Shown here: positions 3,812 to 57,984 of the stretch, in pieces
Numbering within the stretch: the first letter of the stretch is position 1
Layout: the number at the start of each line of letters is the position of its first letter
Assembly (NCBI GenBank): GCA_019187485.1
Contig: JABAQR010000048.1
Span: forward strand, 25,979 to 89,978
From: Lysobacterales bacterium
GTDB lineage: Bacteria > Pseudomonadota > Gammaproteobacteria > Xanthomonadales > SZUA-5
Direction of reading: 5' to 3'
DNA: 64,000 bases
Position numbers and translations under genes: made by a program
The notes under the pieces: generated by a model
What the model was told of the DNA's origin: nothing
The model's database searches: none
What the model saw: only the letters and a program-made list of their open reading frames with translations

Positions 3812-3843
3812 GGCTCGTGCTCCGTCGGTAGGTCAATCAAGCT

Positions 3844-3972
3844 GACGCAAAGGACGCAAAGGGAGCGAAGGACGCAAACTAAGGCGATCGACAATTGGCA
3901 AGCCACTGGATCGGCACCAGGCTCTGCTTTCCTTTGCGTCCTTGCTTGCTCTTCTTTGCGTCCTTTGCGTCC
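3844..3972. repeat. Palindromic tandem-unit element, copy A (9-nt unit GACGCAAAG)
   Basis: The left arm is GACGCAAAG GACGCAAAG GGAGCGAAG GACGCAAAC (3844-3879). A centre of about 50 nt follows. The right arm at 3931-3972 is made of CTTTGCGTC-type units, the reverse complement of the left arm. Lies between the thrB stop and the thrC start. Confidence 0.85.
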
Positions 3973-4022
3973 ATTGCTCCTCCGGCAACGGCCGGAGCCC
4001 GGTCGCGACGCACGCGTCGCTC

Positions 4023-4991
4023 CTACGAGCGGCTCAACACCTGCGCGCCGGCATTTGCGACCGCGCTGACGATGATATCGCTGGCCAGACCTGCCTCGGC
4101 GAAGGCATGGGCCATCGCGAGGCCAGCGTCGGCGGCTCGCTCGCGTTCGCGGAACCAGGCGAACACGCTCGGACCGGCGCCGGAAATCGACGCGCCGAGC
4201 GCGCCAGCGGCGAGCGCGGCGGCCTTGACCGCCCCGAAACCGGGGATCAGCGGCGCCCGGCGCGGCTCGACCAGCACATCGCGCAGGCCGCGGCCGATCA
4301 GCTCGAAGTCGCCACCGAAGCAGCCGGCGAGCACCAGCGCCAGGCCTTCGCTCTGGCCGACAAACTCGTTCAGCGCGTAGACGCCACGCAGCGCCTCGCG
4401 CGCCTTGCGGGTCTCGAGCACGAAGTGCGGGTGGGCGACGACCGCGGTCAGGCCAGGCGGGACCGGGATCGGCACCAGGCGGTCGGCGGTCGCCAGCACC
4501 AGGCCGCCGAGCAGTTGCGGGCCGACGTTGTCGCCGTGTAGCGAGCCACTCGCCGCGCGCTCGCCTTCGAGGGCGTAGGGGTACAGCTGCTGCGGCGACA
4601 GCGGTTGTGCCAGCAGCGCGTTCGCCGCGGTCAGCGCGGCGGTCGCCGAGGCGGCCGAGCCGCCGAGGCCGGAGCCGAGCGGGATGCCCTTCTCGATCCG
4701 CAGTTCGACACCGAAGTCCAGTCCGAGCGCGCTGCGCCAGGCCGCCACCGCGCGCGCGGCGGTGTTTTGCTCCGGATCGAAAGGCAGGTCGGTGACGACG
4801 CCGGTGATCTCTGCCACACGCGCCACGGGCTCGTCGATGCGGGTGGCCGTCACGGTGTCGCCGATGCCTTCGAGCGCGTGCCCGAGCAGATCGAAACCGA
4901 CCCCGACGTTGCCGACGCTGGCGGGGGCGAAGGCGGTCGCGGTGGTGAATCCGGGGCACGCGGCACGGGGCACGGGGCACGGGGGAGTCAT
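4023..4991 (-). CDS. thrB: Homoserine kinase
   Basis: GHMP kinase motif [32 protein letters not shown] aligns with the E. coli ThrB N-terminus as I recall it. The first 14 or so codons ([14 protein letters not shown]) are encoded by the arm of repeat copy B. Confidence 0.9.
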
Positions 4992-5087
4992 GCGAGCCTC
5001 CGGGACTGGGCTGCGAAACGACCTCTTGGTCCGGAGCCTGCGCGGGCCTGCTCTTCCCGTGCCCCATGCCCGGTGCCCCGTGCCCCG
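4953..5087. repeat. Palindromic tandem-unit element, copy B (7-nt unit GGCACGG)
   Basis: Left arm GGGGCACGCGGCACGGGGCACGGGGCACGGGGG, a 70-nt centre, and right arm CCCGTGCCCCATGCCCGGTGCCCCGTGCCCCG. It fills the 97-nt thrA-thrB junction and overlaps the thrB start. Confidence 0.9.
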
Positions 5088-5088
5088 T

Positions 5089-7551
5089 TCAAAGCGCCGC
5101 CCCCAGCCCGGCTGCCACCCGCAGCAGGTCGGCGAACACGCCGGCGGCGGTGACGTCGGGACCAGCGCCGGGACCGCGCACGATCAGCGGATTGTTGCGG
5201 TAGCGCTGGGTCGCGAAGGAGACGATGTTGTCGGTCAGCGCGATGTGCGCGAAGGGATGGAAGGCCGGCAGGGCCTTCAGCGCGACTTCGGCGCGGCCGT
5301 CGGCTTCGAGCACCGCGCAATAACGCAGCACCTGATGATTCGCGCGCGCCTCGTCGAAGCGCGCCCGCATCGGCGCGTCCAGGCAGTTGAGCCCGGCGAG
5401 GAAGCCCTCGACGCTGGCTTCGCGCAACTCGGCGGGCACCAGGCTCTCGACGTGCACCTGGTCGACTTCGATGTCGAGGCCCATCTCGCGCGCCAGGATC
5501 ACCAGCTTGCGGGCGACGTCGAGGCCGGAGAGGTCGTCGCGCGGGTCGGGCTCGGTGTAGCCGGCCGCCTTGGCCTGGCGCACCAGTTCGGAGAACGGCG
5601 CCTCGCCGTCGAAACGGTTGAACAGGTAGGCGAGCGTGCCCGAGAAGATGCCCTCGATGCGCTCGATGCGATCGCCGGTGTCGATCAGGTCGCGCAGCGT
5701 GCCGATCACCGGCAAGCCGGCGCCGACGGTGGCCTCGTAGCGCCAGCGCGCGCGCCCGCTCTTCGCCGCAGCCTGCACCGCGCGGTAGCGTGCCAGCGGG
5801 CCGCCGCCGGCCTGCTTGTTCGGGGTCAGCACGTGGATGCCGGCCGCCAGCCACTTCGGGTACTGGTCGGCGACCGCGCTGCTCGCCGAGCAGTCGATGA
5901 TCACCGCGTGCGGCAGGTGTTCGGCGTGCACATGCCGCGCGAGCGCGTCGAGGTCGACGACGTCGCCGCGCTCGGCGAGCTGCTCGCGCCAGTGCGGCAA
6001 ATCGATCTGCTGCTCCTGGAGCAGCATCTTCCGCGAGGTCGCGATCGCGCGCACGCGCAGGTCGAGGTGCGCCTCGCGCTTGAGGCGGCCGCGCGCCTCG
6101 GCGATCTGCTGCACCAGCGCCTGGCCGACCGTGCCCGGCCCGATGATGCCGATCGAGACCGTCTGCGCCGACAGGTAGAAGCCCGCGTGCACCGCGCGCA
6201 GCGCGCGCGTCGCCTCGCCCTCGGCGATCGCCACCGAGATGTTGCGCTCGGAGGAACCCTGCGCGATCGCGCGCACGTTGACCTTGGAGCGCCCGAGTGC
6301 GCCGAACAGGCGCGCGCAGATGCCCGGCGTGCCGGCCATGCCCTCACCGACCACCGCGAGCACGCTGATGCCCTTCTCGCTGACCACGCGCTGGATCTGG
6401 CCGCGCTGGATCTCGCGCGAGAAGGCCTCGACCAGCACGTCGCGCGCGCGGTCGGCCTCGCCGCCCTGGATCACGCAGCAGATCGAGTGCTCGGAGGAAC
6501 CCTGCGAGATCATCGTCACCGAGATGCGCGCATCGCGCAGTGCCGCGAACACGCGTTCGGCGGTGCCGTGCACGCCGATCATGCCGGCGCCCTCGATGGT
6601 CACCAGGGCCATCCCGCCGATCGTCGTGATGCCCTTGATCGGCGGCTCCTCACCGCCGTCGGCGTCGATGCGCGTGCCCGGATGCTCCGGGTTGAAGGTG
6701 TTGCGGATGAACACCGGAATGTTGCGTGCGGTCGCCGGCGCCATCGTCTGCGGGTGGATCACCTTGGCGCCGAAATAGGCGAGTTCGAAGGCTTCCTCGT
6801 AGGTCACGTGGTCGAGCACGATCGCCTCGGGCACCCGCCGCGGATCGGCCGAGAGCACGCCGTCGACGTCGGTCCAGATGTGGATCTCGACGGCCTCGAA
6901 GAGCGCGCCGAAAATGCTCGCCGAATAGTCCGAACCGTTGCGCCCGAGCGTGGTGATGCGCTCATCGGCGAGGCGCCGGGCGATGAAGCCGGTGACCACG
7001 TAGCGCCGCGCCGGATGCGCGCGCTGGAACTCGGCGAGGCGCTTCTCGCTCGGCAGCCAGTCCACCGCGACGTGCAATTCGGTCGGCGTGACCCGCAGCA
7101 CCTCGCGCGCATCGAGGAAGACCGCGCCTTCGCCGAGCGAGCGGAAGTGCGATGCGAGCATCTGCGCCGACCACACTTCGCCGAGGCCGGAGACCAGTTC
7201 GACCACCTCCACCGGCACCGTGCCCAGCAGTTCCACGCTGCGCAGGATGTGCTCGAGGTCGGCGAAGCTGCCGTCGAGGACCGCCGCGAAGGCGCTCGCC
7301 TCGGCCGCCAGCAACTCCGCGGCGGTGTCGAGGTGGCGCTGCTTCAGCGCGGCCAGTTCGACCGGCCAGGCGGGATTGCGCGCCGCCGCGAGCGCGGTCA
7401 GCCCGATCAGGGTATCGGTGACGCCCTGCATCGCCGAGACCACCACCACCTGGGCCTCGTCTTGGCGCGCGAGCATCCGCTTCGCGACGGTCTGGTAACG
7501 GGCAGCGTTGGCAACGCTGGACCCGCCGAACTTGTGGGCGATCCACCGCAT
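5089..7551 (-). CDS. thrA: Bifunctional aspartokinase / homoserine dehydrogenase
   Basis: Start chosen at [13 protein letters not shown], the aspartokinase KFGG motif. ACT-region sequences are followed by a homoserine dehydrogenase half ([13 protein letters not shown]...). It is the first gene of the thrABC order. The annotated ORF has 53 extra upstream codons that I reject. Confidence 0.93.
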
Positions 7552-7743
7552 GGGGAGAGTTTCCTGGTGTGCAATGCGATGAAGCGACCCCTCCGTCGCC
7601 TCGAACCCGCGACAGTGCCAGAGAGCGGGGCGAGGAATCAATCTGCAGTCGAATGCGGGTCGTATCCTCGCTCCGGGAAACCCGAGGCGAGCGTTCGTCC
7701 GGCCGACCACATCCTTCGCGCAGCCCGACGTCGCCGCGAGCCT

Positions 7744-7767
7744 TCGGCGGCCGCAACAGGCCGCCGA
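7744..7767. terminator. GC-rich hairpin downstream of the SecB-like gene
   Basis: TCGGCGGCC-GCAACA-GGCCGCCGA forms a 9-bp perfect stem, 16 nt past the stop at 7783. The T-run (TTT) is on the plus-strand side only, so function as a minus-strand intrinsic terminator is uncertain. Confidence 0.4.
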
Positions 7768-7782
7768 TTTCCGCTCGGGCCT

Positions 7783-8244
7783 TCAGTTCAGTACCACCGG
7801 TCCCTGCTGCGCCGCACTCACCTCCTGCGGCAGGTCCAGCGGCAAACGGATGTTCTGCATTCCCAGATCCTGCAACAGGGACTGTGCGCGCAGCGACAGC
7901 GCGGCGAACAGATGGCGCGCGAACACCGTGTGGTGGGTGGCGAAATCGCCGACGGCGATGGCGCCTGCGCCAACCTGGCGATAGTTCGCCGACGCCCGGA
8001 TCTCCAGGTCGAAGAGCTTGGAGCGGTTCGACCCGCGCAACGGCGTGCCCACGCAGCTCAAGCGGGTCTGCAGCACGAACAGCATCGGCTGCGCGCCCTC
8101 GACCTGGTTCGGCGTCAACTGAAACTCGACGTGCGCGTGGCACTCGACGCCGCGCGCCTCCACGCCCTGCTGCAACTGCGCCTGCAATCCGGTGATGCTG
8201 ATGCTCTCCAGCGTCAGCGACCGGAACATCTCGTCTGCATTCAT
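7783..8244 (-). CDS. SecB-like chaperone-fold protein (distant, tentative)
   Basis: 153 aa starting at MNADEMF. The pattern of alternating strands plus a C-terminal segment (HLFAALSLRAQSLLQDLGMQNIRLPLDLP) resembles the SecB PILFPYARE...FPPLxLxPVNF region from memory. The ATG overlaps the upstream stop (ATGA). Confidence 0.45.
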   Translation of the reverse strand: MNADEMFRSLTLESISITGLQAQLQQGVEARGVECHAHVEFQLTPNQVEGAQPMLFVLQTRLSCVGTPLRGSNRSKLFDLEIRASANYRQVGAGAIAVGDFATHHTVFARHLFAALSLRAQSLLQDLGMQNIRLPLDLPQEVSAAQQGPVVLN

Positions 8245-8879
8245 CCCTGCGGGTCTTCCCTGGCCTGGTCCACGGCGCGCCAAAGATACAGGCAGGCGAG
8301 CGTGCGGTACGGCCGCCAGCACTCGCCCATCGCCGTGAGTTCGGCATGACCGGGCATCGCGGGAAGACCATGCACGATCTGCGCACCGGCGCGCACGCCG
8401 TAGTCGGACACCGGCAGCACGTCCGGCCGGCCCATGCGGAACATCAGCAGCATCTGCACCGTCCACGGGCCGATGCCGCGCACCATCGTCAGGTGCTCGA
8501 TCGCCGCCTCGTCGTCGAGCGCGTGCAAAACCCGCAGCGAAGGCAGGCGGCGCGCGCGGACGTGCTCGGCAAGGTCCCTGAGCGCACGCAACTTGTTCGC
8601 CGACAACCCCGCCGCACGCAGTTGCGCATCGTCGGTCGTGGTGATCGCCTTGGCGGTGATCTGGCCACCTCCGAGCGCCTGGCGCACGCGCCCGAAGATC
8701 GTTTCGGCCGCCTTGCCGTTGAGCTGCTGGAACACGATCGCGCGCGTCAGCGCGTGCACCAGCGTGAAGCGCTCGGGTTGCGGCAATGGCAACTCGCCGA
8801 TGCGATCCATCCACGCGCCCAGGCGCGGATCGGCGCAACGCAGGTGGCTGCGGGCGGCGTGGTCCAGTGGACTTGGCAT
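8241..8879 (-). CDS. HhH-GPD DNA glycosylase (3-methyladenine DNA glycosylase II / AlkA-like core)
   Basis: 212 aa. A helix-hairpin-helix signature (LTMVRGIGPWTVQMLLMF) is followed by a catalytic-Asp region (VLPVSDYGVR). Confidence 0.8.
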   Translation of the reverse strand: MPSPLDHAARSHLRCADPRLGAWMDRIGELPLPQPERFTLVHALTRAIVFQQLNGKAAETIFGRVRQALGGGQITAKAITTTDDAQLRAAGLSANKLRALRDLAEHVRARRLPSLRVLHALDDEAAIEHLTMVRGIGPWTVQMLLMFRMGRPDVLPVSDYGVRAGAQIVHGLPAMPGHAELTAMGECWRPYRTLACLYLWRAVDQAREDPQG

Positions 8880-8958
8880 GCAGGGTTGCGGGTGTCCGGT
8901 TGCCGGGAACCGATAGCCACTCGCTGGACGGGGCGCGTGCGCCCCGTCCAGCGATGGG

Positions 8959-11799
8959 TCAGGGCCGGAAGTTCAGCCGCTCGCGCTCGGCGGCCAGCGC
9001 CTGGTCCTGGCGGATGATCAGGGTCTTGTAGCGATTGGTGAGCCAGCGACCGAGCTGACTGGCGTAGGTCGGCGATCCGAGCACACCGGACTGGCCGCCC
9101 GGATGGATGTTCTCGGCGGCGATCTCGGCGGTCAACTGGCCAACGAAGCGACGCGCCGGGCCGGATCCGAACATGAAACCGTTGACGGTGTTGGCGCGGG
9201 TCGAGTGGGCCGAGGCGTCCAGCACCTCGTAGCCACCGGGCCGAGCGATGCCCGGCAACTGCGCCGACAGGCTGGCGAAGCCATAGGGATTGCTGCCCGG
9301 CAGGTTGAATGGACCGCCCAGCGGATGGTCAAACACGATCCGGTGCAGCCGTCCCCAGCGGTAATCGTCGAGGTTGGTCGAGTTCGCGAAGGCGGCGGCG
9401 AAATCGTTGCCGGAGAGCGCGTTCAGCGCGTCCCGCAGCGCGCGCAGCAACAACGTGTCGCGCGCAGCCTCGGGCGTAGGCGCGCCGCTCAGTTGGAAGA
9501 AATTGACGCCGCTGGCACCGACGCCATGCGCGGTCGGATAGCGCTCCAGCAGGTACAGCAAGGCGCGTACCGATTCCTCCGAACCCGGCGTCTGGCTGCC
9601 GAGGCCGATGCGCGTCAGTGTGCCATCGACGACACTGCGGATCGCGAAGGAGCGCCACACCGCGAACACCGTCGCCGCGGTCGAGTTGGCGATCTCGGTA
9701 GCGCTGGGTTGCGGCAGGTTGGCCGGATCGTCGCCCGGATCGAAGCCCTGCGCGATGCCGGTCGGCGTCGAATAGTCCCAGCTGCGCAGGCGCGCGATCG
9801 CGGCCGCGACGCGCGCGTCGCTGGCGATCGTGCGCAGCTCGCTCCAGGCATTCGGCGCCGCCGCATTGGTGGCCGCCGCGAGCAGGAAGGGTGTGAGTTT
9901 CTCGGCGTCGAGCGGCTGATTGTTGGCCTGCGTGCTCTTGATGAAATCCGCCGTGACTGGCTGTCCGGAAGCCAGGCGCGCCTGCAGCAGGCGATCGATG
10001 CGGCCCTGACGGAAGGCCGAGTAGCCGTTCTCGAGGTAGTAGATGCCGCCCCCCGGCCGCAACTGGTTCAACGCATTGTTGTCGAGGGTCACGCCGATCG
10101 GGTCGTTGTTGCAGTTCGCGATGTACCCCGCGGCCGGGTTGATCACGAAAGGCATCTCCGCCGGCGGCAGGATCTCGAAGGGCAGCGACTGGTTCGGGTA
10201 ATTGCTCGTACGCGGCAACCAGTCGTGCTGGAGGGTGCCCGAACCATCGCGGATCAGGAAGGGCGGCACGCCGCCGTCGGGCCGGCCGAGCGTCTGCAAG
10301 TCGCGCCGCAACGGCGATTCGGCGGTGGTGAAATAGGCGATGTTGTTGTCGACGTCGGCATACACGAAGTTCTGCGAGCCGACGTCGAAATACGACAGGT
10401 TGTCGCGGAACTCCTGCACGTTGCGTGAGCGCGGCAGGCGCCGGAAGGTCTCCAGCTCATTGGTTGCGCCCCAACCTGTGTAGGCCACCGACAGGCCGGT
10501 CGAGCCGGAGATCGTCACCACCGGGCCATTGTTGCGGCGCGGCACGATGATGGTCACACCGCCGTTGGTGTAGCCGATGGCGTTGGTGCGCGCGATGTTG
10601 TTGGCGACGCCATCGCCAATGGCGTTCACGAAGTAGCTCTGGAACACCCACACCACGGGTTCGGCGACGCCGCCATGGAGCGTGTGCGTCGGCAGCCCGT
10701 AGGTATTGAGCCGGAAGGTTTCCTGGTAGGTGTCGGTGACATCCAGAGGATTGGTCGTCAGGCCCCAGCAGAAACGGTCGGTACAGCCGAGCAAGGGACC
10801 CGGCGCGCCGGCCACCGAGGAACCGCTGAAGTTGTACGGCACCGGGAAGCGCGTGTCGGAGGAATACAGGCGGTTCTCGTAGAAAACCGAAGCCGTGTCC
10901 AGGCTGAGGTGTGGATCGTTCGCGAGGATCGGCCGGCCGCTGGCGGTCTTGCTGCCGGCAACGACCCACCAGTTGCTGGCACCGCGACCCTCGCGGAAGT
11001 TCAACGCGGGCCCGATCAGCGGGTGCTCGCTCACCTGATCGCGGTACTGGCGCGCGAGGTCCACCGTGCTCGCCGAGATCATCGGCACCTGCTCGGCGAG
11101 GCTCTTGTCCACCTCGCCCTGACCACCGATCGATTGCAGGAAGTTCGGGATCGACACCCGGTTGTCGCCCGGCTGCGTGCGGTGGGTGTCCTCGAAAAAC
11201 AGCGCGGCGCCATTGAACCCGCCGGCGGCGCCGGCCTGCTGGTAGGCCGCCAGGCGCAGGGTGAAATCGATATCGAGATCGAAGGACAACTGGAAGGCGA
11301 GCGCCTTGCCGATGACGAGGGAATCGACCGGCGACCAGGGATCGACCTGGGTCAGTTCCAGTGCGCCATATTCGGGCGGCAGCGCAGGAGTCGAACGGAT
11401 CCAGAAGTTGACGCCGTTCGCGTAGGCTTGGAGGAAGTCGCGCATGTCCGGCGAGAGCTTGGCGTAGGACTCCCAGGCAGCGCGCCGCAGGCCGAGCGTG
11501 CGGATCTGCACGTCGTTGGCGAGCGCGGCCTGGCCGACCAGTTCCGCCACCGTTCCGCTGGCGCCGCGACGGTTGAAATCCATCTGGAAGAAGCGGTCGC
11601 GAGCGTGGACATAGCCTTGCAGGTAGGCCATATCAAGGTCGTTCGCGGCGACGATCGTCGGCACACCCTCGGCGTCGATCGAGATCGAGCCGTTGGCGAT
11701 CAGACCCGGCGCCACGGTCTGCGCCGTAGCGGTGCCGGCGCACAGCAGCAGGGCGGTGGCGAGCGCCAGCGGGCGGCGCGCAAATGTTGGCTTGACCAT
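8959..11799 (-). CDS. Penicillin/AHL acylase family Ntn-hydrolase, secreted
   Basis: Start at MVKPTFARRPLALATALLLCAGTATAQ (signal peptide) with a GGGAGGA SD upstream. Ntn nucleophile context GRGASNWWVVAG...ILANDPHL. About 946 aa. Confidence 0.85.
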   Translation of the reverse strand: MVKPTFARRPLALATALLLCAGTATAQTVAPGLIANGSISIDAEGVPTIVAANDLDMAYLQGYVHARDRFFQMDFNRRGASGTVAELVGQAALANDVQIRTLGLRRAAWESYAKLSPDMRDFLQAYANGVNFWIRSTPALPPEYGALELTQVDPWSPVDSLVIGKALAFQLSFDLDIDFTLRLAAYQQAGAAGGFNGAALFFEDTHRTQPGDNRVSIPNFLQSIGGQGEVDKSLAEQVPMISASTVDLARQYRDQVSEHPLIGPALNFREGRGASNWWVVAGSKTASGRPILANDPHLSLDTASVFYENRLYSSDTRFPVPYNFSGSSVAGAPGPLLGCTDRFCWGLTTNPLDVTDTYQETFRLNTYGLPTHTLHGGVAEPVVWVFQSYFVNAIGDGVANNIARTNAIGYTNGGVTIIVPRRNNGPVVTISGSTGLSVAYTGWGATNELETFRRLPRSRNVQEFRDNLSYFDVGSQNFVYADVDNNIAYFTTAESPLRRDLQTLGRPDGGVPPFLIRDGSGTLQHDWLPRTSNYPNQSLPFEILPPAEMPFVINPAAGYIANCNNDPIGVTLDNNALNQLRPGGGIYYLENGYSAFRQGRIDRLLQARLASGQPVTADFIKSTQANNQPLDAEKLTPFLLAAATNAAAPNAWSELRTIASDARVAAAIARLRSWDYSTPTGIAQGFDPGDDPANLPQPSATEIANSTAATVFAVWRSFAIRSVVDGTLTRIGLGSQTPGSEESVRALLYLLERYPTAHGVGASGVNFFQLSGAPTPEAARDTLLLRALRDALNALSGNDFAAAFANSTNLDDYRWGRLHRIVFDHPLGGPFNLPGSNPYGFASLSAQLPGIARPGGYEVLDASAHSTRANTVNGFMFGSGPARRFVGQLTAEIAAENIHPGGQSGVLGSPTYASQLGRWLTNRYKTLIIRQDQALAAERERLNFRP

Positions 11800-11938
11800 G
11801 ATTTCCTCCCGGATGGATGCCGACGGACGGCATGTGTGCAGGCGGTTATACGCCTTCGCACCGACCAGGGAGTAACGCTTTGCAGTATGTCCGGGCGGGT
11901 TTCCGTGGCCCACCCGGACGTTGCGGGCCGGAAACGAC

Positions 11939-11960
11939 GAAGGCGCCCGCAGGCGCCTTC
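11939..11960 (-). terminator. Rho-independent terminator candidate after rplS
   Basis: GAAGGCGCC-CGCA-GGCGCCTTC forms a 9-bp stem. On the minus strand it is followed by GTCGTTTCC. It lies 26 nt past the rplS stop. Confidence 0.6.
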
Positions 11961-11985
11961 GCAGGGTCCACATCGAAGCGCGTCG

Positions 11986-12345
11986 TCAACCCTTGGCGGC
12001 CGACAGGTCTTCGCGAATACGTGCGGCCTTGCCTTCCAGCTCGCGCAGGTAGTACAACTTGGCGGCGCGCACCTTGCCGCGGCGCTTGACCTGCACCGAC
12101 TCGATTGCCGGGCTGTAGGTCTGGAAGACCCGCTCGACGCCCTCGCCGTGCGAGATCTTGCGCACGGTGAAGGAGGAGTTCAGGCCACGACTCTTGATCG
12201 CGATGACCACGCCCTCGTAGGCCTGCACGCGCTCGCGCGCGCCTTCCTTGACCTTGACGTTGACCACGACGGTATCGCCGGGCGTGAACGTCGGGATGTT
12301 GCGGTTCATCTGCTCAGCTTCCAGTTGCTGAATGATCTTGCTCAT
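11986..12345 (-). CDS. rplS: 50S ribosomal protein L19
   Basis: 119 aa, [13 protein letters not shown]...[15 protein letters not shown]. Last gene of the rpsP-rimM-trmD-rplS order. Confidence 0.97.
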
Positions 12346-12378
12346 GGCGATTCCTTCGGGTGCAGACAGACTAGCCGC

Positions 12379-13131
12379 CTAGTCTACACCGAATTTCGCC
12401 TGGTGTTCATCCATGAACTCGCGCAGCAGCGCCCGATCGGTTTTGTTCAGCTTGACCCGCGCGAGCAGGTCCGGGCGCTTGAGCCAGGTGACACCGAGCG
12501 CCTGCCTGCGTCGCCAGCGTGCGATCTGCGCGTGATTGCCGGACAGCAACACCGGTGGAACGTCACCCTCCTCGGCTTGCTCGGGCCGCGTGTAGTGCGG
12601 GCAGTCCAGCAGCCCGTCCATGAAGCTGTCCTCGATCGCCGAGGCATCGCTGTGCAATACCCCCGGCAGCAGCCGGGTCACCGCATCGATCACCGCGAGT
12701 GCCGGCAGCTCGCCGCCGGAGAGCACGAAATCGCCGATCGAGACTTCCTCGTCGATGTAACGGTCCACGAAGCGCTGGTCGATCGCCTCGTAGCGCCCGC
12801 ACACCAGCACCAGGCCGGGCAGCGCGGCGAATTCGCGCGCCCGCGCCTGGTCGAAGCGCCGGCCCTGGGGACTCAGCAACAGCACCAGCGCACTGCCGGA
12901 CTGTTCCTTCGCCGCCGCCAGCGCACGTTTCAGCGGCTCGATCTTGAACACCATGCCGGGTCCACCGCCGAAGGGACGGTCGTCGACGGTGCGGTAGTTG
13001 TCCTCGGTGTAGTCGCGCGGATTCCAGCACTGCAGCGCAATCCGCCCGCGTTCCAGCGCGCGCCCGACCACGCCGACCGCCATCGCCGCACGGACAAATT
13101 CGGGGAAGAGGGTGAGGACGTCGAAGCGCAT
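12379..13131 (-). CDS. trmD: tRNA (guanine37-N1)-methyltransferase
   Basis: Start at MRFDVLTLFPEF. Motifs DDRPFGGGPGMV and GRYEAIDQR. 250 aa. Confidence 0.95.
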   Translation of the reverse strand: MRFDVLTLFPEFVRAAMAVGVVGRALERGRIALQCWNPRDYTEDNYRTVDDRPFGGGPGMVFKIEPLKRALAAAKEQSGSALVLLLSPQGRRFDQARAREFAALPGLVLVCGRYEAIDQRFVDRYIDEEVSIGDFVLSGGELPALAVIDAVTRLLPGVLHSDASAIEDSFMDGLLDCPHYTRPEQAEEGDVPPVLLSGNHAQIARWRRRQALGVTWLKRPDLLARVKLNKTDRALLREFMDEHQAKFGVD

Positions 13132-13140
13132 TTCCGAAGC

Positions 13141-13239
13141 GGTTGTCGGTGATCGGTTGTTGGTTGTCGGCAGCCAGGGCCGGCGAGTCCGCGGTGCTTC
13201 GCTCCGGCGAGCTTCGCTGCCGAGAACCGACAAGCAACC
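13141..13239. repeat. Palindromic tandem-unit element, copy C (7-nt unit GGTTGTC)
   Basis: Left arm GGTTGTC GGTGATC GGTTGTT GGTTGTC GG, a 49-nt centre, and right arm CCGAGAA CCGACAA GCAACC. It occupies the rimM-trmD junction. Confidence 0.8.
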
Positions 13240-13247
13240 CCCTGCCC

Positions 13248-13817
13248 CTAGAAGTCCGGATCCCAGTCCACCTTGATCACCCCGACGTCGAGGTCCACCG
13301 AGATCACGTGGCGCTCCAGCACGAAGGGGATCATGCGCTCGCGGGCGCCGTCGCGGACGACCAGGATCGGATGTGCGCCAAAGTCGACGAGGTGGTCGAC
13401 GCGGCCGAAGTCGGCGCCGTCGCGATTGCGCACGGCCAGGCCTTCGAGATCTGCCCAGTAGTACTCGCCCTTGCGCAAGGGCGGCAGTGCCGCGCGCTCG
13501 ACCGCGATTTCGCGGCCCCTCAGCGCGGCGGCCGCCTCGCGGTCGGCGATGCCCTCGACCTCGACGATCAGGCCCTTGGTGCTGTCCTGGCCACGCACCA
13601 CGGCAAGCGGCTGCGGGGCGTCGCCACCCAGCAGCCACCAGGGAGAATATTGAAGCAGCCTGCGCGGCGGGTCACTGAAGGAAGCCACCATCAGCGCGCC
13701 GCGCACGCCGTGCGCGCCCTGCACACGGCCCATCGTCACCAGCCGCTGCCGGGCAGCGCCGGTGGCCGCTGGCGCCGGGGCCTCAGGCCGCGGCGGCGGG
13801 CTGCTGCTTCTGCGCAA
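13248..13817 (-). CDS. rimM: 16S rRNA processing protein RimM
   Basis: [15 protein letters not shown] aligns with the GxxxGxxGWxxV RimM N-terminal motif, and a PRC-barrel-like C-terminus is present. ATG 13817 overlaps the rpsP 3' end by 35 nt. Alternative starts near 13733-13739 would truncate the conserved N-terminus. Confidence 0.85.
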
Positions 13818-14046
13818 GCTTGATCAGCTGGCGGACCTTGTCGGTCGGCTGCGCGCCGACGCCGACCCAATGCGTGACGCGGGCCAGGTCGACCGACAGC
13901 GGCACTTCCTTGCCCTGCGCGATCGGATTGTAGAAACCCACGCGCTCGATGCTGCGGCCGTCGCGTGCATAGCGCTCGTCGGCCACCACGATGTAGTAGA
14001 AGGGCCGCTTCTTGGCGCCACCACGAGCCAGGCGAATCTTGACCAT
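13783..14046 (-). CDS. rpsP: 30S ribosomal protein S16
   Basis: 87 aa, [17 protein letters not shown]. Confidence 0.97.
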
Positions 14047-14129
14047 CGATTGAGTCCTTTCAAACGCATGCGGTACGAGCGAAGCCGGCGAGTTTAGCCG
14101 AGTCCGCAGGCTGCGCCAAGCGCCTCGAA

Positions 14130-14236
14130 GGTTGTGGGTGGTGGGTGGTGGGTTGTGGGTTCAGGCAACAGTGCGCTCCGAAATCGGTTCTTGCGTGCTT
14201 CTGCTGCCCACAACCCACAACTCACAACCCACAACC
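14130..14236. repeat. Palindromic tandem-unit element, copy D (7-nt units GTTGTGG/GTGGTGG)
   Basis: Left arm GGTTGTGGGTGGTGGGTGGTGGGTTGTGGGT, a 46-nt centre, and right arm CCCACAACCCACAACTCACAACCCACAACC. Lies in the divergent rpsP/parC intergenic region. Confidence 0.85.
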
Positions 14237-14286
14237 ATCTTCAAGGTAGAGTCGCCGCCCTCCGCAACACCCACGCCGCAGCGCCG

Positions 14287-16523
<2,237 letters not shown>

Positions 16524-16524
<1 letters not shown>

Positions 16525-16673
16525 GGCACGGGAGCACGGGAGGAGCGGGACACGGGGCACGAAAAAAGCTCGCTGAACGCCGGGCTGCGCAGGCCACCCG
16601 TCCAGCGCACCCACATCAAACTTGCCCGAGGTCTTCCTGTGCCCCGCCCCACGGTGCCCGTGCCTCCGCTTCC
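16524..16673. repeat. Palindromic tandem-unit element, copy E (irregular CACGGG-type units)
   Basis: The left arm AGGCACGGGAGCACGGGAGGAGCGGGACACGGGGCACG starts at the last base of the parC TGA. A centre of about 75 nt follows. The right arm is CCTGTGCCCCGCCCCACGGTGCCCGTGCCTCCGCTTCC. Confidence 0.75.
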
Positions 16674-16706
16674 ACCTCCAACGCCCCGCTTCAGCTTCCC
16701 CCTGCT

Positions 16707-16793
16707 ATGTTCCGCGCGATGAAAGGTTTTCCGCTCCCAGCCGTCACCATACGAGATCATTGCGGTTGGCGATGCCGGGCAGGCGTGCGATGA
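16707..16793 (+). other. Upstream ORF made from a duplicated rnt 5' end, with its stop overlapping the rnt ATG
   Basis: M(FRA)MKGFPLPAVTIRDHCGWRCRAGVR*. The TGA at 16791-16793 overlaps the rnt ATG at 16790-16792 (ATGA). Confidence 0.4.
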
Positions 16794-16819
16794 AAGGTTT
16801 TCCGCTCCCAGCCGTCACC
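16716..16819 (+). repeat. 33-bp direct repeat (two copies, 71-bp period) spanning the rnt start
   Basis: GCGATGAAAGGTTTTCCGCTCCCAGCCGTCACC occurs at 16716-16748 and again at 16787-16819. Confidence 0.9.
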
Positions 16820-17458
16820 CTGGCCGATCGCTTTCGTGGCTATTACCCGGTCGTGGTCGACGTCGAAACGGGCGGTTTCGACTGCGAGGGCGATGCCCTG
16901 CTCGAGATCGCTGCGGTGCTGTTGGAAATGACGCCGGAAGGCCGCTTGCGGCGCAGCCATACGGTCTCCACGCACGTAGTCCCGTTCCCGGGGTCGAACA
17001 TCGATCCGCGCTCGCTCGAGATCACCGGCATCGACCCTAGCCATCCGTTGCGTGCCGCGCTCGATGAGCGCGAGGCGCTGGACTGCATCTTCGAGCCGGT
17101 GCGCAAGGCGATGAAGGCTGCCGACTGCACGCGCGCGATCCTGGTCGGGCACAACGCCGCCTTCGACCTTTCCTTCCTGAACGCCGCGATCCGCCGCACC
17201 GGCCACAAGCGTTCGCCATTCCATCCCTTCAGCACCTTCGACACGGTCTCGCTGGCCGGCCTGACCATCGGCCAGACCGTGCTCGGCAAGGCCCTGCACA
17301 TGGTCGGTCTGGGTTGGAACAGCAAGCAAGCGCACTCGGCGATCTACGACGCCGAACAGACCGCCGAACTGTTCTGCGCGATCGTCAACCGCTGGCGCGA
17401 ACTGCAAGCGACGACGACCGACGCATCTTCGATGGCGGCCTTGCTCACCCCGGCCTGA
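16790..17458 (+). CDS. rnt: Ribonuclease T
   Basis: MKGFPLPAVTLADRFRGYYPVVVDVETGGF matches my recollection of E. coli RNase T (CDRFRGFYPVVIDVETAGF). DEDDh exonuclease motifs are present (HNAAFD, HSAIYDAE). Confidence 0.92.
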   Translation: MKGFPLPAVTLADRFRGYYPVVVDVETGGFDCEGDALLEIAAVLLEMTPEGRLRRSHTVSTHVVPFPGSNIDPRSLEITGIDPSHPLRAALDEREALDCIFEPVRKAMKAADCTRAILVGHNAAFDLSFLNAAIRRTGHKRSPFHPFSTFDTVSLAGLTIGQTVLGKALHMVGLGWNSKQAHSAIYDAEQTAELFCAIVNRWRELQATTTDASSMAALLTPA

Positions 17459-17562
17459 CCCGTCTTCGTCGCCCGAGAAGCCTCGCGTTCAGAAGCGGGT
17501 GGCAGGCATCTCCACAACGCCGCGGGCATTCATCTGCGCATTCTTTGCCATCCGCTTGCCGT

Positions 17563-19554
17563 CTACCAGTGCACGCCACGCATCAGCGAGGCGAAAGCCA
17601 CCTGCTCGCTCGACGGCGGCGCATCCTGGCCACCCTTGACGCCTTTCGCAGCGGCCGAATCCGGGAACAGTTGGAAGGCGGTGTTGAGCACCACCTGGTA
17701 CACCTTCGGCGCCATCAGGTGGAGCATCTCGGCGAAGATGCCGAGGCGCGTGGCGATCCGGTGCGGACGTTCGATGATCGCCTGCACGACCATGTCGCCG
17801 GCCTCCTCGGGTGTGAGCGTCGGCACGTTGTCGTAGATCTTGGTCGGACCGATCATCGGCGTCTTCACCAGCGGCATGTTGACGATGGTGAAGTGGATGT
17901 TCTTGTCCGAGAACTCGCTCGCCGCGCAGCGCGAGAAGGCATCCAGCGCGGCCTTGCTGGCGACGTAGGCAGAGAAGCGCGGCGCGTTGGTGAGCACGCC
18001 GATCGAGCTGATGTTGATGACGTGACCGCGACGGCGTTCGGTCATGCTCGGCAGCAGCCCCATGACCAGCCGCAGCGAACCGAAATAGTTCAGCTGCATG
18101 GTGCGCTCGAAATCGTGGAAGCGGTCGTAGCTGAGCTCGATCGAGCGCCGGATCGACCGTCCGGCGTTGTTGACCAGCACGTCGACGCCCTTGTGGTCCG
18201 CGAGCACCTTCCTGACCAGCTCGTCGCAGGAGGCCAACTCGGACAGGTCGGCCTGGTAGATGAAGACCTGGGCGCCCTTGTGTTCGGCCTCGATCTCGGC
18301 CTTGGCCTTCTCGAGGTCCTCGAGTCCGCGCGCGCAGATCAGAGTCTTCGCGCCGGCCGCTGCCACCTTTTTCGCGGTCGCGAGCCCGATCCCCGACGAG
18401 CCTCCGGTGATCAGCACCACCTTGTCGCGCACGCGACTGCCGAGCGATCGGTCGACGTGCAGGTCGGGATCCAGGTGGCGCTCCCAGTAGTCCCACAGGC
18501 GCCAGGCGTAGTCCTCGAGGTCGGGAACCCGGATACCAGTCCCCTTGAGCACGCGTTCGGTCTCACGGGTATCGAAGCGGGTCGGGTAATTGAAGAACTT
18601 CAGTACATCCGCGGGGATGTTGAGGCTCTTCAGGGTGTGGTTGAGGATCCGCCGCACCGGCGGCAGCATGCCGATCGCGCCGCGGATCGAGGCCGGAATG
18701 AACTGGAAGATGCGCGCATCGATGCGCATCGTCATCTTCGGCGCATGCCCGGCACTGGCGAAGATGTTCAGCACCTCGCCGACCCGTCGTGGCGACGGAT
18801 CGGTCAGGTGGAAACACCCGCCGTCGAGGCCTTTTTCATGCGCGATGTGGTCCATCGCATTGACCACGAAATCGACCGGCACGATGTTGATGCGGCCGCC
18901 CTCGAAGCCGAGCGTCGGCACCCACGGCGGCAGCGTCTGGCGCAAGCGCTTCAGCAGCGTGAAGAAGTAGTAGGGGCCGTCGATCTTGTCGATCTCGCCG
19001 GTTTGCGAGTGGCCGACGACCATGCCTGGCCGGTAGATCCGGAAGGGTCGCTTGCACTCCTTGCGGACGATGCCTTCGGAATCGTGCTTGGTACGGAAAT
19101 AGGCGTGCTCGAGATTCTCGGCCTCATCGAACATGTCTTCGCGGAACACCCCGGCGTAAAGGCCGGCGGCGGCGATCGAGCTGACATGGTGGAAGCAGCC
19201 GGCGCGGATCGTCTCGGCCAGTTCGACCGCGTTGCGGGTGCCGTCGATGTTCGCCGCCTGCTGCGATTCCGCATTCGCCGACAAGTCGTAGATCGCAGCC
19301 AGGTGGAAGAAATGACGGACCTTGCCGGTGAGCTGCTTCTGCGCCTCCGCGGAAAGACCGAGCTTCGGCTTGGTGAGATCTCCGGTGACCGCGACCAGGC
19401 GCTCACCGGCCTCTGGGTAGCGCTCCTTCAGCGCCTCGAACTTGTCCTTGGATCCGCGCCGGACCAGCACATGGATGGTGCCCTTGCGCTTGAGCAGGTT
19501 GCCGATCAGGAAGCGGCCCAGGAAGCCGGTTGCGCCTGTGACGAAATAGCTCAT
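17563..19554 (-). CDS. Two-domain fatty acyl-CoA/aldehyde reductase (thioester-reductase domain plus SDR domain)
   Basis: 663 aa. The N-terminal Rossmann motif is MSYFVTGATGFLGRFL, and the C-terminal half has a second motif, VVLITGGSSGIGLATAK. The size and architecture resemble the about 660-aa Marinobacter-type wax-ester reductases (recalled, not searched). Confidence 0.8.
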   Translation of the reverse strand: MSYFVTGATGFLGRFLIGNLLKRKGTIHVLVRRGSKDKFEALKERYPEAGERLVAVTGDLTKPKLGLSAEAQKQLTGKVRHFFHLAAIYDLSANAESQQAANIDGTRNAVELAETIRAGCFHHVSSIAAAGLYAGVFREDMFDEAENLEHAYFRTKHDSEGIVRKECKRPFRIYRPGMVVGHSQTGEIDKIDGPYYFFTLLKRLRQTLPPWVPTLGFEGGRINIVPVDFVVNAMDHIAHEKGLDGGCFHLTDPSPRRVGEVLNIFASAGHAPKMTMRIDARIFQFIPASIRGAIGMLPPVRRILNHTLKSLNIPADVLKFFNYPTRFDTRETERVLKGTGIRVPDLEDYAWRLWDYWERHLDPDLHVDRSLGSRVRDKVVLITGGSSGIGLATAKKVAAAGAKTLICARGLEDLEKAKAEIEAEHKGAQVFIYQADLSELASCDELVRKVLADHKGVDVLVNNAGRSIRRSIELSYDRFHDFERTMQLNYFGSLRLVMGLLPSMTERRRGHVINISSIGVLTNAPRFSAYVASKAALDAFSRCAASEFSDKNIHFTIVNMPLVKTPMIGPTKIYDNVPTLTPEEAGDMVVQAIIERPHRIATRLGIFAEMLHLMAPKVYQVVLNTAFQLFPDSAAAKGVKGGQDAPPSSEQVAFASLMRGVHW

Positions 19555-19729
19555 GTGATCGTCCTCCCCCGAGGTCGAGAAGATGCCGGCCGCCGCGGAA
19601 TCGACGGATGGCCCTAAGATATCGAGCGCCGCGGGCGACCGCCAGCGAAGCCCGCCCGACCCCTTGCGATTCGCGGTCCGCGGAACGATAGTGGCGACCG
19701 GGTTTCAGCCACGCCTTGCGGAGACACGA

Positions 19730-19993
19730 ATGTCCGACCTCGACAGCCAGTTCCAGGCCGCGACCGAAGCTGCCAAGCAGCTCCCGGAGCGCCCCGACAA
19801 CGACACCATGCTGAAGCTCTACAGCCACTTCAAGCAGGCCACCGAGGGTGATGTGTCGGGACCGAAGCCGGGCTTCTTCGACTTCGTGGGCACCGCCAAG
19901 TACGAGGCCTGGGAGAAGCTCAAGGGCCTGTCCGCGGACGACGCGAAGAAGAAGTACATGGACCTCGTCAAGCGCCTCGGCGGCAAGTTCTGA
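19730..19993 (+). CDS. Acyl-CoA-binding protein (ACBP)
   Basis: 87 aa. The motifs LKLYSHFKQATEGD and GTAKYEAWEKLKG are the classic ACBP signature. Confidence 0.88.
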   Translation: MSDLDSQFQAATEAAKQLPERPDNDTMLKLYSHFKQATEGDVSGPKPGFFDFVGTAKYEAWEKLKGLSADDAKKKYMDLVKRLGGKF

Positions 19994-20000
19994 GGGCGTC

Positions 20001-20654
20001 GTGGCACAGGAACCCGGGCCGGTGAAGACGCGTGACCGCATCCTGGCGAAGAGCCTGGAGATGTTCAACGCGCAGGGTGAACCGAACGTCACCACGAATC
20101 ACATCGCCGACGAGCTGGAGATCAGCCCGGGCAACCTCTACTACCACTTCCGCAACAAGGACGACATCATCGAGCAGTTGTTCGCGCGCTTCGAGGAGCG
20201 CATCGGCGAAGCGCTGCTGGTGCCCGAGGGCCGCCAGCCCAATCTCGAGGACATGTGGCTGCAGATGCACCTGGTGTTCGAGTGCATCTGGGACTATCGC
20301 TTCGTCTACCGTGATCTCGTCGACCTGCTGACGCGCTCGCGCAAGCTCAAGATGCACTTCTCGCGCATCCTGAAGCGCGCCCACGAGAGCATCTCGAAGG
20401 TGTGCACGGAGATGGTCAAGGCCGGGACGATGCTCGCCAGCCAGCGCGAGATCGAGGCGATCGCGCAGAACACCGTGGTGCTGACCACCTTCTGGCTGAA
20501 CTTCCAGCAGATCAAGCCGGCCACCAGCACCAAGACCGACGTCGACCTCGGCCGCGGCATCTACCAGGTCATGGTTCTGATCGCGCCCTACCTGAAGAGC
20601 GCCGAGCGGGCGCACCTGAACCGGCTGGCGGACCAGTACCTGGGTGGAGCGTAG
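20001..20654 (+). CDS. TetR/AcrR family transcriptional regulator
   Basis: GTG start 8 nt after the ACBP stop. The N-terminal HTH is RDRILAKSLEMFNAQGEPNVTTNHIADELEISPGNLYYHFRNKDDI. Confidence 0.85.
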   Translation: MAQEPGPVKTRDRILAKSLEMFNAQGEPNVTTNHIADELEISPGNLYYHFRNKDDIIEQLFARFEERIGEALLVPEGRQPNLEDMWLQMHLVFECIWDYRFVYRDLVDLLTRSRKLKMHFSRILKRAHESISKVCTEMVKAGTMLASQREIEAIAQNTVVLTTFWLNFQQIKPATSTKTDVDLGRGIYQVMVLIAPYLKSAERAHLNRLADQYLGGA

Positions 20655-20658
20655 GAAC

Positions 20659-20738
20659 GGTTGTCAGTTGTCAGTTGCCGGTTGTCGGCAGCGGAAGCCC
20701 GGGCATCCACCCTTGCTGACAACCGAGAACCGACCACC
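20659..20738. repeat. Palindromic tandem-unit element, copy F (7-nt unit GGTTGTC, short centre)
   Basis: Left arm GGTTGTCAGTTGTCAGTTGCCGGTTGTCGG, a 30-nt centre, and right arm ACAACCGAGAACCGACCACC. The arm shares CCGAGAACCGAC with copy C. Confidence 0.8.
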
Positions 20739-20768
20739 CGCACGGGCTGGCCATCGCCAGCCCGTGCG
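20739..20768. terminator. Perfect 12-bp hairpin between convergent genes
   Basis: CGCACGGGCTGG-CCATCG-CCAGCCCGTGCG. It lies between the TetR stop (20654) and the phasin-like stop (20777). There is no clear U-tract. Confidence 0.5.
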
Positions 20769-20776
20769 AATGCGCA

Positions 20777-21190
20777 TCAGGCCGCCTTGGCCTGCAGCGC
20801 CTTGACCTGCTTGCTGAGGTCGGCGACGCGACGCGACAGCGCCTGCACGTCGGCCTTGCTCGGTACGCCGAGGCGACCGAGCACGCGCGTGACCTGGCCG
20901 CCGACCACGCCCTCGACTTTCCCGAAGTTCGCAGCGGCGCGTTGCTGCACCTGACCGAACACGCCCGCGACGCGGCTGCGCACGTCGGCGACCGCGCCTT
21001 CGGCAAACTTGACGGTGCGCTCACGCAACTCCTGGCCCTGCTCGAACAGGTTGCCGACGAAGCGCACGCCTTCCTTGCGCGACAGCGACACCGCGCCGAG
21101 TGAGGCGAGCAGCGCCTTGCGCGCGCCCTTGTCGGTGCTGGACCTGGACACGCGCACGGACTTGCGGGCGACGGGTTTCTTGCTAGCCAT
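20777..21190 (-). CDS. Phasin-family (PhaF/PhaI-like) granule-associated protein
   Basis: Start at MASKKPVARK. 137 aa, predicted all-helical and rich in K, R, A and V. The segments GVRFVGNLFEQGQE...GVPSKADVQALSRRVADLSKQVKAL resemble poly-granule-associated proteins. Confidence 0.6.
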   Translation of the reverse strand: MASKKPVARKSVRVSRSSTDKGARKALLASLGAVSLSRKEGVRFVGNLFEQGQELRERTVKFAEGAVADVRSRVAGVFGQVQQRAAANFGKVEGVVGGQVTRVLGRLGVPSKADVQALSRRVADLSKQVKALQAKAA

Positions 21191-30114: not shown

Positions 30115-30199
30115 GCCGACGTGGTGGAATTGGTAGACACGCTACTTTGAGGTGGTAGTGGGGCAACCCGTGACGGTTCGAGTCCGTCCGTCGGCACCA
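30115..30199 (+). tRNA. leuU: tRNA-Leu (anticodon GAG)
   Basis: 85 nt. Acceptor stem GCCGACG/CGTCGGC, anticodon loop TTGAGGT, long variable arm, TPsiC arm GGTTCGAGTCC, encoded CCA. Nearly colinear with E. coli leuU, which also follows secG. Confidence 0.93.
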
Positions 30200-52692: not shown

Positions 52693-52824
52693 GTGCGTGG
52701 CACGGGGCACGCGGCAGGCGAAGCCGCAGTCGCACGCGGGCGGAAGGTCCCGGCTGGAAAGCGACCGGCGCCGAACTTGCGACGGCCCGCCGTCCCCGTG
52801 CCCCGTGCTCCCTGCCCCACGTCC
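52693..52824. repeat. Palindromic tandem-unit element, copy G (GGCACGG-type units)
   Basis: Left arm GTGCGTGGCACGGGGCACGCGGCAGG, a centre of about 75 nt, and right arm CCCCGTGCCCCGTGCTCCCTGCCCCACGTCCC. It fills the 151-nt DUF969-DUF979 junction. Confidence 0.8.
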
Positions 52825-57847: not shown

Positions 57848-57984
57848 GGGGGCACGGGGCACGGGGCACGGGGCACGGGAGGAGCGGGCGCGCGGCAAGT
57901 GCCGGATCCGAGGGCTCGACGGAGCGAAGGCTCGCACCTCATTCGCCAGCCTCCCGTGCCCCGTGCCCCGTGCCCCGTGCCCCA
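57848..57984. repeat. Palindromic tandem-unit element, copy H (perfect 4 x GGCACGG arms)
   Basis: Left arm GGGGGCACGGGGCACGGGGCACGGGGCACGGGA, a 71-nt centre, and right arm TCCCGTGCCCCGTGCCCCGTGCCCCGTGCCCCA. It lies at the rfbC-rmlD junction and overlaps the rfbC 3' end. Confidence 0.92.

Follow-up and report, generated by a model that had tools for sequence, protein, structure and literature searches.

We review eight intergenic repeat elements (A to H) in a 64-kb stretch of DNA, about 67% GC, from a Lysobacterales bacterium (contig JABAQR010000048.1, positions 25,979 to 89,978; hereafter the window). Each element pairs a G-rich tandem array with a complementary C-rich one, across a centre of 30-100 nt. 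We lean, with modest confidence, towards reading them as dispersed, non-coding, foldback-like elements, the arms of which would be homogenised by replication slippage together with arm-to-arm template switching. An earlier note on this DNA, given for positions 3844-20738, had listed eight copies, named the unit of each, and proposed that the two arms co-vary between copies. Tandem Repeats Finder (TRF), an inverted-repeat finder, and direct reading recover all eight copies, with G and H lying outside that range, and the units are as assigned: a 9-mer in A, GGGGCAC/GTGCCCC in B, E, G, and H, TTGTCGG-like units against CCGACAA/CCGAGAA in C and F, and a GGGTTGT type in D (its arms can be read as GGGTTGT/GGGTGGT against CCCACAA). 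Arms hold about 4 units of 7-9 nt, with TRF copy numbers of 3.9-4.7 per arm in B, D, F, and H; the unit is 9 nt long in A only, and the other window elements are built of heptamers.

A concerted change of both arms at one orthologous locus is central to this reading. The spacer between parC and rpsP, which holds element D, is orthologous in the window and in two relatives, L096 and L092 (labels in L denote loci, in the main from Lysobacterales relatives, retrieved via TrmD, ThrB, and RmlD homologues), and its flanks and the ends of its centre (CAGCAGARGC...GCCTKA) are conserved. In the window the unit reads TTGTGGG, whereas L096 has TTGTCGG and L092 a TTGTTGG-like unit; the opposite arm carries, in the same order, CCCACAA, CCGACAA, and CCAACAA, giving the paired states G-C, C-G, and U-A. 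RNAalifold on the three species finds both sides changed in 5 of 31 pairs, at the same unit position in successive units, and compensatory change between arms is thereby confirmed. Since TTGTCGG is the state in paralogues and relatives, the G of the window is the derived state, and it has since reached about eight units over the two arms. The closest other lineages found share 80-92% identity in ThrB and 81-87% in TrmD, and orthologue depth is three or four per locus at most.

Other loci display related patterns. A third-unit variant, GGAGCRAAG, is mirrored between the arms of A and of its orthologue in L003, and the order CAC-then-CAA is mirrored in L009 except in one unit. At L220 5186-5333, the 148-nt arms are identical at 146 of 148 positions and mirror one another in block order: 8-mers (GAGGGCAC), 7-mers (GGGGCAC), and 8-mers. 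In element C it is the centre that has changed. Its 14-nt junction block (GGCGAGCTTCGCTG) matches L096 only when flipped (longest common substrings; 5 nt unflipped), and between L096 and L092 the centres agree without any flip; the window centre is therefore inverted between its arms relative to the orthologues. Global alignment was undecided on this orientation (40.5 vs 40.5), as the element is palindromic, and the centre substrings settled it.

Template switching is favoured because three-state compensatory change appears in both arms at one orthologous locus, because the centre of C is inverted, an outcome that a yeast study names for template switching (PMC8604942), and because arms can be perfect or nearly so, as in L220 and in H, where the perfect match reported earlier holds at 34 of 34 positions. 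According to the yeast study, when the template switches between inverted-repeat arms that are not identical, the arms become homogenised and the spacer is inverted (PMC8604942). A proteobacterial survey supports the preferential correction of imperfect repeats to perfect ones via template switching (PMC5941160), and Monttinen and Loytynoja show that stems, along with multi-base compensatory changes in them, can arise and be kept up by this process (PMC8794818).

In the scheme that we propose, the elements occupy gene ends in spacers, their inverted arms are short microsatellites, and at least 3 families coexist in this genome and in Lysobacterales relatives. Replication slippage would gain, lose, and homogenise units within one arm. 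Folding back would then allow intramolecular template switching or recombination to copy one arm onto the other, and could flip the centre. Together, slippage and template switching would result in concerted evolution: the unit, even its length, would change while the arms stayed complementary, without selection on pairing. We take the anatomy, the families, the rule of orientation, the compensatory changes of unit, the flipped centre of C, and the lack of an mRNA-structure signature as shown, and infer the mechanism, past mobility, and any effect on expression. Long hairpins or G-quadruplexes might form beside stop codons and ribosome-binding regions.

Arm pairing was assessed against several backgrounds. 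The arm-match score is the best ungapped score of an arm against its own partner, and the background is 2057 tiles from the same window, with a maximum of 10-12. A, B, D, and H score clearly over this maximum, F and G are borderline, and C and E do not rise over background (Table 1); RNAfold z-scores run from -6 to -9 for A, B, D, and H and from -1.5 to -2.7 for C, E, F, and G. The arms of C and E agree in unit type, not base by base. The "few mismatches" once ascribed to A, C, and D thus understate the divergence of C; E and G have decayed. When 1.41 Mb is shuffled by a Markov model, 2 inverted repeats are obtained versus 77 in the real sequence, and 0 periodic ones versus 6. The remaining pair statistics come from 2.13 Mb of non-redundant sequence from related and metagenomic loci. 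Here, 46 of 72 adjacent G-rich-then-C-rich pairs have matching units, versus 12.4 expected when partners are permuted (2000 permutations, of which the highest reached 21); with GGGGCAC left out, the figures are 25 of 44 versus 2.3. About 30 consensus-unit labels occur among the matched pairs, and the unit numbers of the two arms are correlated (rho 0.43, p 0.001).

The elements also obey a rule of orientation. The arm with more G than C is 5' in 50 of the 54 matched inverted pairs, in all 15 pairs from the clade loci, and in all 8 window elements, and in an inverted pair this places the G-rich arm 5' on both strands. Orientation is the same in units capable of forming a G-quadruplex (G4) and in units without a G3 tract (GTGAGTA, GGAAAAA, GACGCAAAG). 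The opposite layout is rare: C-rich (CCCCGTG)n, 11-19 nt, and then (GGGGCAC)n, on metagenome contigs of GC ~0.61 from other organisms (L152 255-328, L185 288-365, L100 ~2600-2680). This compact, C-rich-first arrangement may be a different kind of hairpin.

Several observations weigh against slippage and arm-to-arm template switching as a full account. Unit numbers and elements are invariant in 10 assemblies with identical TrmD, so slippage is not seen directly; these assemblies are 99.8-100% identical over 8-21 kb and hence uninformative on polymorphism. Two elements have heterologous arms, (GGTTGTT)6 opposite (CCGTACC)3-4 at L218 7157-7362 and GGTTGYT opposite CTACTCA at L168 217-293, and arm matching is therefore a strong tendency, not a rule. 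Variant units are unmirrored in B, in D (two GGTGGTG units), and in L217, and conversion would therefore be patchy or old. The unit difference between B and L217 (GGGGCAC vs GGGGCAG) could be independent occupation; we considered it as a second concerted case and downgraded it, as the centres have no similarity. Centres are unrelated between copies, apart from junction motifs of 5-14 nt. No target-site duplication was seen at element borders read by eye, where old ones could have been erased in diverged flanks, and no transposase or RAYT gene was seen in the 64-kb window and the fragments of relatives; mobility is thus read from dispersal alone. Finally, the 50:4 rule is predicted neither by plain template switching nor by hairpin selection, and hints at a functional or mechanistic constraint that our reading does not capture.

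One speculative extension, to which we give a low probability, would account for this rule. Self-homogenising palindromes might be maintained by a directional, structure-triggered mechanism, in which the G-rich arm stalls the polymerase only after the partner has been copied and bypass copies the nascent partner. If true, this would explain the G-rich-5' layout whatever the unit, the arrival of new units (even 8-mers) in both arms, and the persistence of long perfect hairpins without selection. The elements would then be a natural bacterial system where template switching makes and keeps stems, and might be to prokaryotes what foldback elements are to eukaryotes.

Among the alternatives, the one that survives best holds that the elements are separate families, similar to MITEs (miniature inverted-repeat transposable elements) or REPINs, with their own terminal inverted repeats and with arms that match by founder descent and no arm-to-arm process. 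We consider it unlikely as a whole. Cross-matching of arms produces a block-structured matrix, {B, E, G, H}, {C, D, F}, and {A}. The left arm of B fits the right arm of H (28) better than its own partner (23), and there is therefore no copy-specific co-variation inside the GGGGCAC group. An arm pair is private to its copy only in D, where the arm scores 21 against its own partner and 7-10 against C and F, plus A, a singleton in the window. All three unit types (GGGGCAC, TTGTCGG, and GACGCAAAG) recur in multiple copies in related Lysobacterales, at many loci and in several species, and junction motifs recur with them. In the GGGGCAC family, arrays are followed by GGGAAAGGCT(CGCAYG), in metagenome contigs too. 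The TTGTCGG family has the layout (TTGTCGG)n CAGC...GCTG (CCGACAA)n. The 9-mer family reads TTTT-GTCCGCAAAG-(GACGCAAAG)2-AGAGC...GCTCTT-(CTTTGCGTC)2-CTTTGCGGAC-AAAA at 6 or more loci with unrelated centres, and its T-run and A-run flanks are complementary, not direct. AGGCTCGCAYG is not enriched in the whole window (3 matches vs 7.4 expected; 2 of the 3 inside elements). A metagenome scan with (GGGGCAC)3 returned mostly unrelated single arrays, on contigs of 34-76% GC, with a convergent partner in about 10 of 122; this convergent subset exposed the GGGAAAGGCTCGCAYG junction.

Because the families are distinct and dispersed, a large part of the co-variation between copies is family membership. 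This applies to most of what was first seen within the window; genuine concerted change exists besides, as at the D locus. The finding that the earlier note had named as refuting its claim, arm types belonging to unrelated elements, is borne out in part, in the form of separate multi-copy families with their own junction motifs. The family found in a given spacer can also vary by lineage. The thrB-thrC spacer carries a 9-mer element in the window and L003 and a G-rich heptamer element in L217; the rmlC-rmlD spacer carries GGGGCAC in the window and L226 and a 9-mer element in L225 and L224, and the one in L225 is nested between decayed G-rich flanks. Such turnover and nesting, as read from the spacers, suggests element mobility. 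Founder descent leaves unexplained the three-state unit change in all units of both D-locus arms within conserved flanks and centre ends, the 146/148 arm identity in L220 while copies differ mutually, and the flipped centre of C. The unrelated centres and the unseen target-site duplications also count against it.

A second alternative, which we regard as distinctly improbable, is that the elements are functional RNA hairpins in polycistronic mRNA (stabilisers, processing sites, or occluders of ribosome-binding sites), in which selection on pairing brings about compensatory changes. All eight elements fill their spacers, flanking genes are co-directional in 6 of 8, and inside operons (thrABC, rpsP-rimM-trmD, rmlCD) 8-32 nt separate the element from the start codon downstream. 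The stems are predicted to be very stable, to -116 kcal/mol, and Rehm et al. found most of the Xanthomonas repeats to be transcribed (PMC4692102). Against this, the 11 elements for which the direction of transcription is known have 31 mismatches between arms, comprising 4 that are G·U-compatible in the sense strand, 11 in the antisense strand, and 16 transversions, and RNAfold gives sense RNA no stability advantage over antisense. Lacking both a G·U bias and a sense-strand folding advantage, selection on mRNA structure is not supported. The earlier note had offered structure selection or templating of one arm from the other, and templating is the better supported. D lies between divergent genes and F between convergent genes, so neither is inside an operon; E and G have decayed while the spacer is kept; and parallel change of every unit in both arms by point selection is implausible. 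The window scan of Rfam 15 gave no bacterial family for the elements at gathering score, and E-value scans of the elements gave just sub-threshold matches resembling microRNA precursors, on both strands, as for generic long hairpins. Consensus scans for promoters and terminators found nothing at the elements, and the 5 terminator-like sites that lie in 3700-21000 all fall outside them; with loops of 30-100 nt and no U-tract signature, the elements do not look like intrinsic terminators.

A third view, in our judgement very unlikely, takes the elements as G4 or i-motif regulatory elements, in which the inversion sets the G4-forming strand beside each flanking gene. B, D, E, and H contain at least 4 G3+ tracts with short loops, the number of units (about 4 per arm) equals the four that are the G4 requirement in Rehm et al. 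(PMC4692102), and the G-rich strand is always directed into the spacer. A, C, F, and G lack the motif, however, and TTGTCGG, GTGAGTA, GGAAAAA, and GACGCAAAG have no G3 tracts yet share the same architecture and orientation; the need for a matching partner arm is also unexplained.

Chance complementarity of low-complexity sequence is scarcely credible: C and E lie within the genomic background for ungapped arm match and the z-scores of E and G are just -1.5, but A, B, D, and H exceed all 2057 tiles, which refutes chance for those four, and the shuffles, the permutation test, which lies far past chance, and the orientation ratio all speak against it. We also considered integron attC sites, protein-binding iterons, and CsrA-type GGA decoys, and set them aside given the housekeeping-gene context and a variety of units that argues against a sequence-specific reader.

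Table 1. Positions, parts, and neighbours of the eight elements in the window.
Element	Family	Span	Strand	Parts	RNAfold z	Arm score	Neighbouring genes
A	9-mer	3844..3980	.	arm 3844-3879, four units (GACGCAAAG GACGCAAAG GGAGCGAAG GACGCAAAC); centre 3880-3931; partner arm 3932-3980 (CTTTGCGTC, 13-nt insert, CTTTGCGTC twice, CATTGCTCC)	-7.5	18	thrB stop 4023, thrC start 3811; both genes minus strand
B	GGGGCAC	4952..5088	.	G-arm 4952-4986; C-arm 5056-5088	-6.1	23	thrA stop codon 5089-5091, directly adjoining
C	TTGTCGG	13140..13239	.	arm 13140-13170 (~4 units); centre 13171-13219 (CAGCCA...GGCGAGCTTCGCTG); second arm 13220-13239 (CCGAGAACCGACAAGCAACC)	-2.4	9	rimM stop 13248-13250, trmD start 13129-13131
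D	TTGTCGG, derived unit TTGTGGG/TGGTGGG; canonical G4 motif	14130..14236	.	G-arm 14130-14161; centre 14162-14206; C-arm 14207-14236	-8.4	21	divergent genes: rpsP side and parC
E	GGGGCAC, decayed	16526..16666	.	G-arm 16526-16561, 1 nt past parC stop; C-arm ~16637-16666	-1.5	8	parC stop 16522-16524; rnt, downstream of C-arm
F	TTGTCGG	20659..20738	.	G-arm 20659-20688 (TTGTCAG twice, TTGCCGG, TTGTCGG), 4 nt past TetR-family gene stop; centre CAGCGGAAGC...TTGCTG; C-arm 20718-20738	-2.7	11	TetR-family gene stop 20652-20654; phasin gene on other side; convergent
G	GGGGCAC, decayed	52696..52822	.	G-arm ~52696-52722; C-arm 52790-52822	-1.5	12	DUF969 gene stop 52829-52831, DUF979 gene start 52675-52677; both minus strand
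H	GGGGCAC	57849..57983	.	arms 57849-57882 and 57950-57983, perfect 34 nt, 4.4 units each; AAGGCTCGCAC in centre	-9.0	34	rmlD ATG 57833-57835

The gene content of the window includes a bifunctional thrA with thrB and thrC, rimM-trmD, parC, rnt, a phasin gene, and rmlC-rmlD, and in B, C, E, F, and G the stop codon upstream is followed by the G-arm at a distance of 0-7 nt. In practical terms, arrays extend into predicted gene starts and ends (thrB, rmlC). The centre of B contains a candidate thrB ATG (4989-4991), the first in frame, together with GGAGG (4997-5001, minus strand), and translation from this start would run through the arm 4952-4986. Upstream of a conserved stretch, the N-terminal extension of ThrB (window 4902-4991, minus strand) is hypervariable among homologues (proteins P0121-P0137; e.g., MKRETSKVNEGRYR, VSEEQEKGKWKMEKGRAGAR) and is a translated tandem array in several, (GGAAAAG)n in L218 and L220 and repeated GTGAAAC in L002; the C-arm of element B forms this extension in the window. 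The rmlC frame (57939-58010, minus strand) extends 23 codons beyond the Pfam domain, through the H arm (57950-57990), to a stop at 57939-57941 in the centre of H, and the original stop codon seems to have been displaced or replaced by the array. Small, conventional GC-rich hairpins adjoin F (CACCCGCACGGGCTGGCCATCGCCAGCCCGTGCG, 20739-20775) and A (CTCCGGCAACGGCCGGAG, 3982-3999), and may be real 3'-end structures of neighbouring genes.

Relatives provide further observations on centres and arrays. REP-like palindromes (repetitive extragenic palindromes) occur as inverted doublets inside the element centres of relatives (GTAGGTCCAGACTTGTCTGGACGC...; in L092 TGTGGGAGCGGCTTCAGCCGCGAAC), at L218 5850-6060, 7150-7500, and 13560-13920, L091 2720-3020, L220 5160-5935, and L092 9777-9972; none is present in the eight window elements. 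Element centres appear to be insertion hot spots. At L218 12260-12470, a stretch of ~102 nt that takes in the final 8 nt of thrC (stop codon included), (TTGTCGG)5, and a REP-like hairpin is duplicated in tandem, and the arrays are direct, without a C-rich partner. The parC-rnt spacer of L092, orthologous to that of E, holds an unpaired (CTTTTCA)4 (6469-6503) beside a decayed CGGGACAGGG remnant; the window sequence at this junction is GGGGCACGAAAAAAGCTCGC. This array may be a new unit born by slippage at an A-rich junction. The contigs of L226, L227, and L224 begin or end inside an array arm (position 1), and those of several close ThrB homologues (P0121, P0122, P0124, P0125) are just 1.0-1.3 kb; arrays may break short-read metagenome assemblies.

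Two matches to curated RNA families, at gathering score, lie apart from the elements: a group II intron (D1-D4-6; full-length Rfam match, 139.6 bits, E 1e-39) at 63471-63694 on the minus strand, near the window end, and an 82-nt tRNA gene at 30115-30196 on the plus strand (Rfam tRNA, 53 bits), the sole other curated RNA match in the window.

The earlier note knew of no described bacterial family of this kind, but the class of convergent heptamer pairs is already described in Xanthomonas, and the family is hence not an undescribed one. Rehm et al. 2015 report 186 and 183 GGGAATC-type heptamer repeats in the genomes of X. campestris and X. axonopodis, with 70-75 convergent pairs per genome; all pairs are convergent, and four units are preferred (PMC4692102). 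These repeats lie beside the ends of open reading frames (ORFs), conserved in position and variable in length and sequence; they form G4 in vitro, and no function was identified (PMC4692102). They share with the window elements the bacterial order, tandem heptamers of about 4 units, convergent pairing, an intergenic location, for the most part with co-directional ORFs on both sides and no more than ~50 bp from the end of an ORF, and a position that is conserved across species (PMC4692102). The Xanthomonas study concerns one unit type, GGGAATC/GGGANTN, chosen as a G4 motif, whereas the window units are GGGGCAC, TTGTCGG/TTGTGGG, and GACGCAAAG, and the TRF output of the window contains no GGGAATC/GGGANTN array. 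Several unit types in a single genome, non-G4 units, a family of 9-mers, concerted change from arm to arm, inversion of the centre, and nesting are not reported there (PMC4692102). More broadly, we have not found described the coexistence of unit families including a 9-mer, arm matching across many units, compensatory unit change between orthologues, centre inversion, or nesting.

Single arrays of short units are also known. Mrazek et al. 2007, as far as it is represented in PMC4679880, found long simple sequence repeats with units of 5-11 nt, heptamers being commonest, enriched in Burkholderia and Xanthomonas, and typing of X. citri by multilocus variable-number tandem-repeat analysis uses hypervariable short tandem repeats of up to 7 bp (PMC4045669). 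These share with the window arrays the short units, the high-GC proteobacterial hosts, and slippage as the accepted source of unit change; in these descriptions they are single arrays, whereas those of the window are complementary pairs. Cyanobacterial short tandemly repeated repetitive sequences are likewise intergenic heptamers near ORF ends, but almost all of them are direct arrays that stand alone: in Nostoc, GGGGA(C/T)T is rarely paired (PMC4692102), and for TAACTGA of Beggiatoaceae and cyanobacteria, MacGregor found one inverted set among 170 (PMC4679880).

Template-switch mutagenesis at quasipalindromes predicts arm correction, one-step multi-base compensation, and spacer inversion (PMC7202029, PMC5941160, PMC8604942, PMC8794818). 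It is a mutational process, not an element family, and does not predict the G-rich-5' rule. Outcomes of this kind are seen in the compensatory pairs of D, the near-identical arms of L220, and the flipped centre of C, for which the process itself is a proposed cause. We know of no description of template-switch mutagenesis acting on microsatellite arms.

REP, BIME, and REPIN sequences and MITEs (Correia, ERIC, Nezha) are small, non-coding, intergenic, palindromic, multi-copy elements, often found in operons and sometimes nested. Their arms are fixed sequences, each family conserves the whole element, and target-site duplications flank MITEs. The window elements resemble MITEs in having terminal inverted repeats and differ in that their arms are tandem arrays and just the arms and a short junction are conserved; conserved internal sequence is absent, as the centres are unrelated. 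Foldback (FB) elements of Drosophila and other eukaryotes have long inverted termini made of short tandem subrepeats, with variable arm length and centre; they are much larger, and some copies carry coding sequence. The likeness to the window elements is one of layout and implies no homology or mechanistic link.

Set beside these systems, the architecture is independent of any single G4 motif: it spans many units, follows a strand rule, and keeps its arms matched through changes of unit. The question moves from the role of GGGAATC to the process that writes the same array at both sides of a spacer, and the elements provide a natural setting for testing what maintains long perfect hairpins, selection or template switching.

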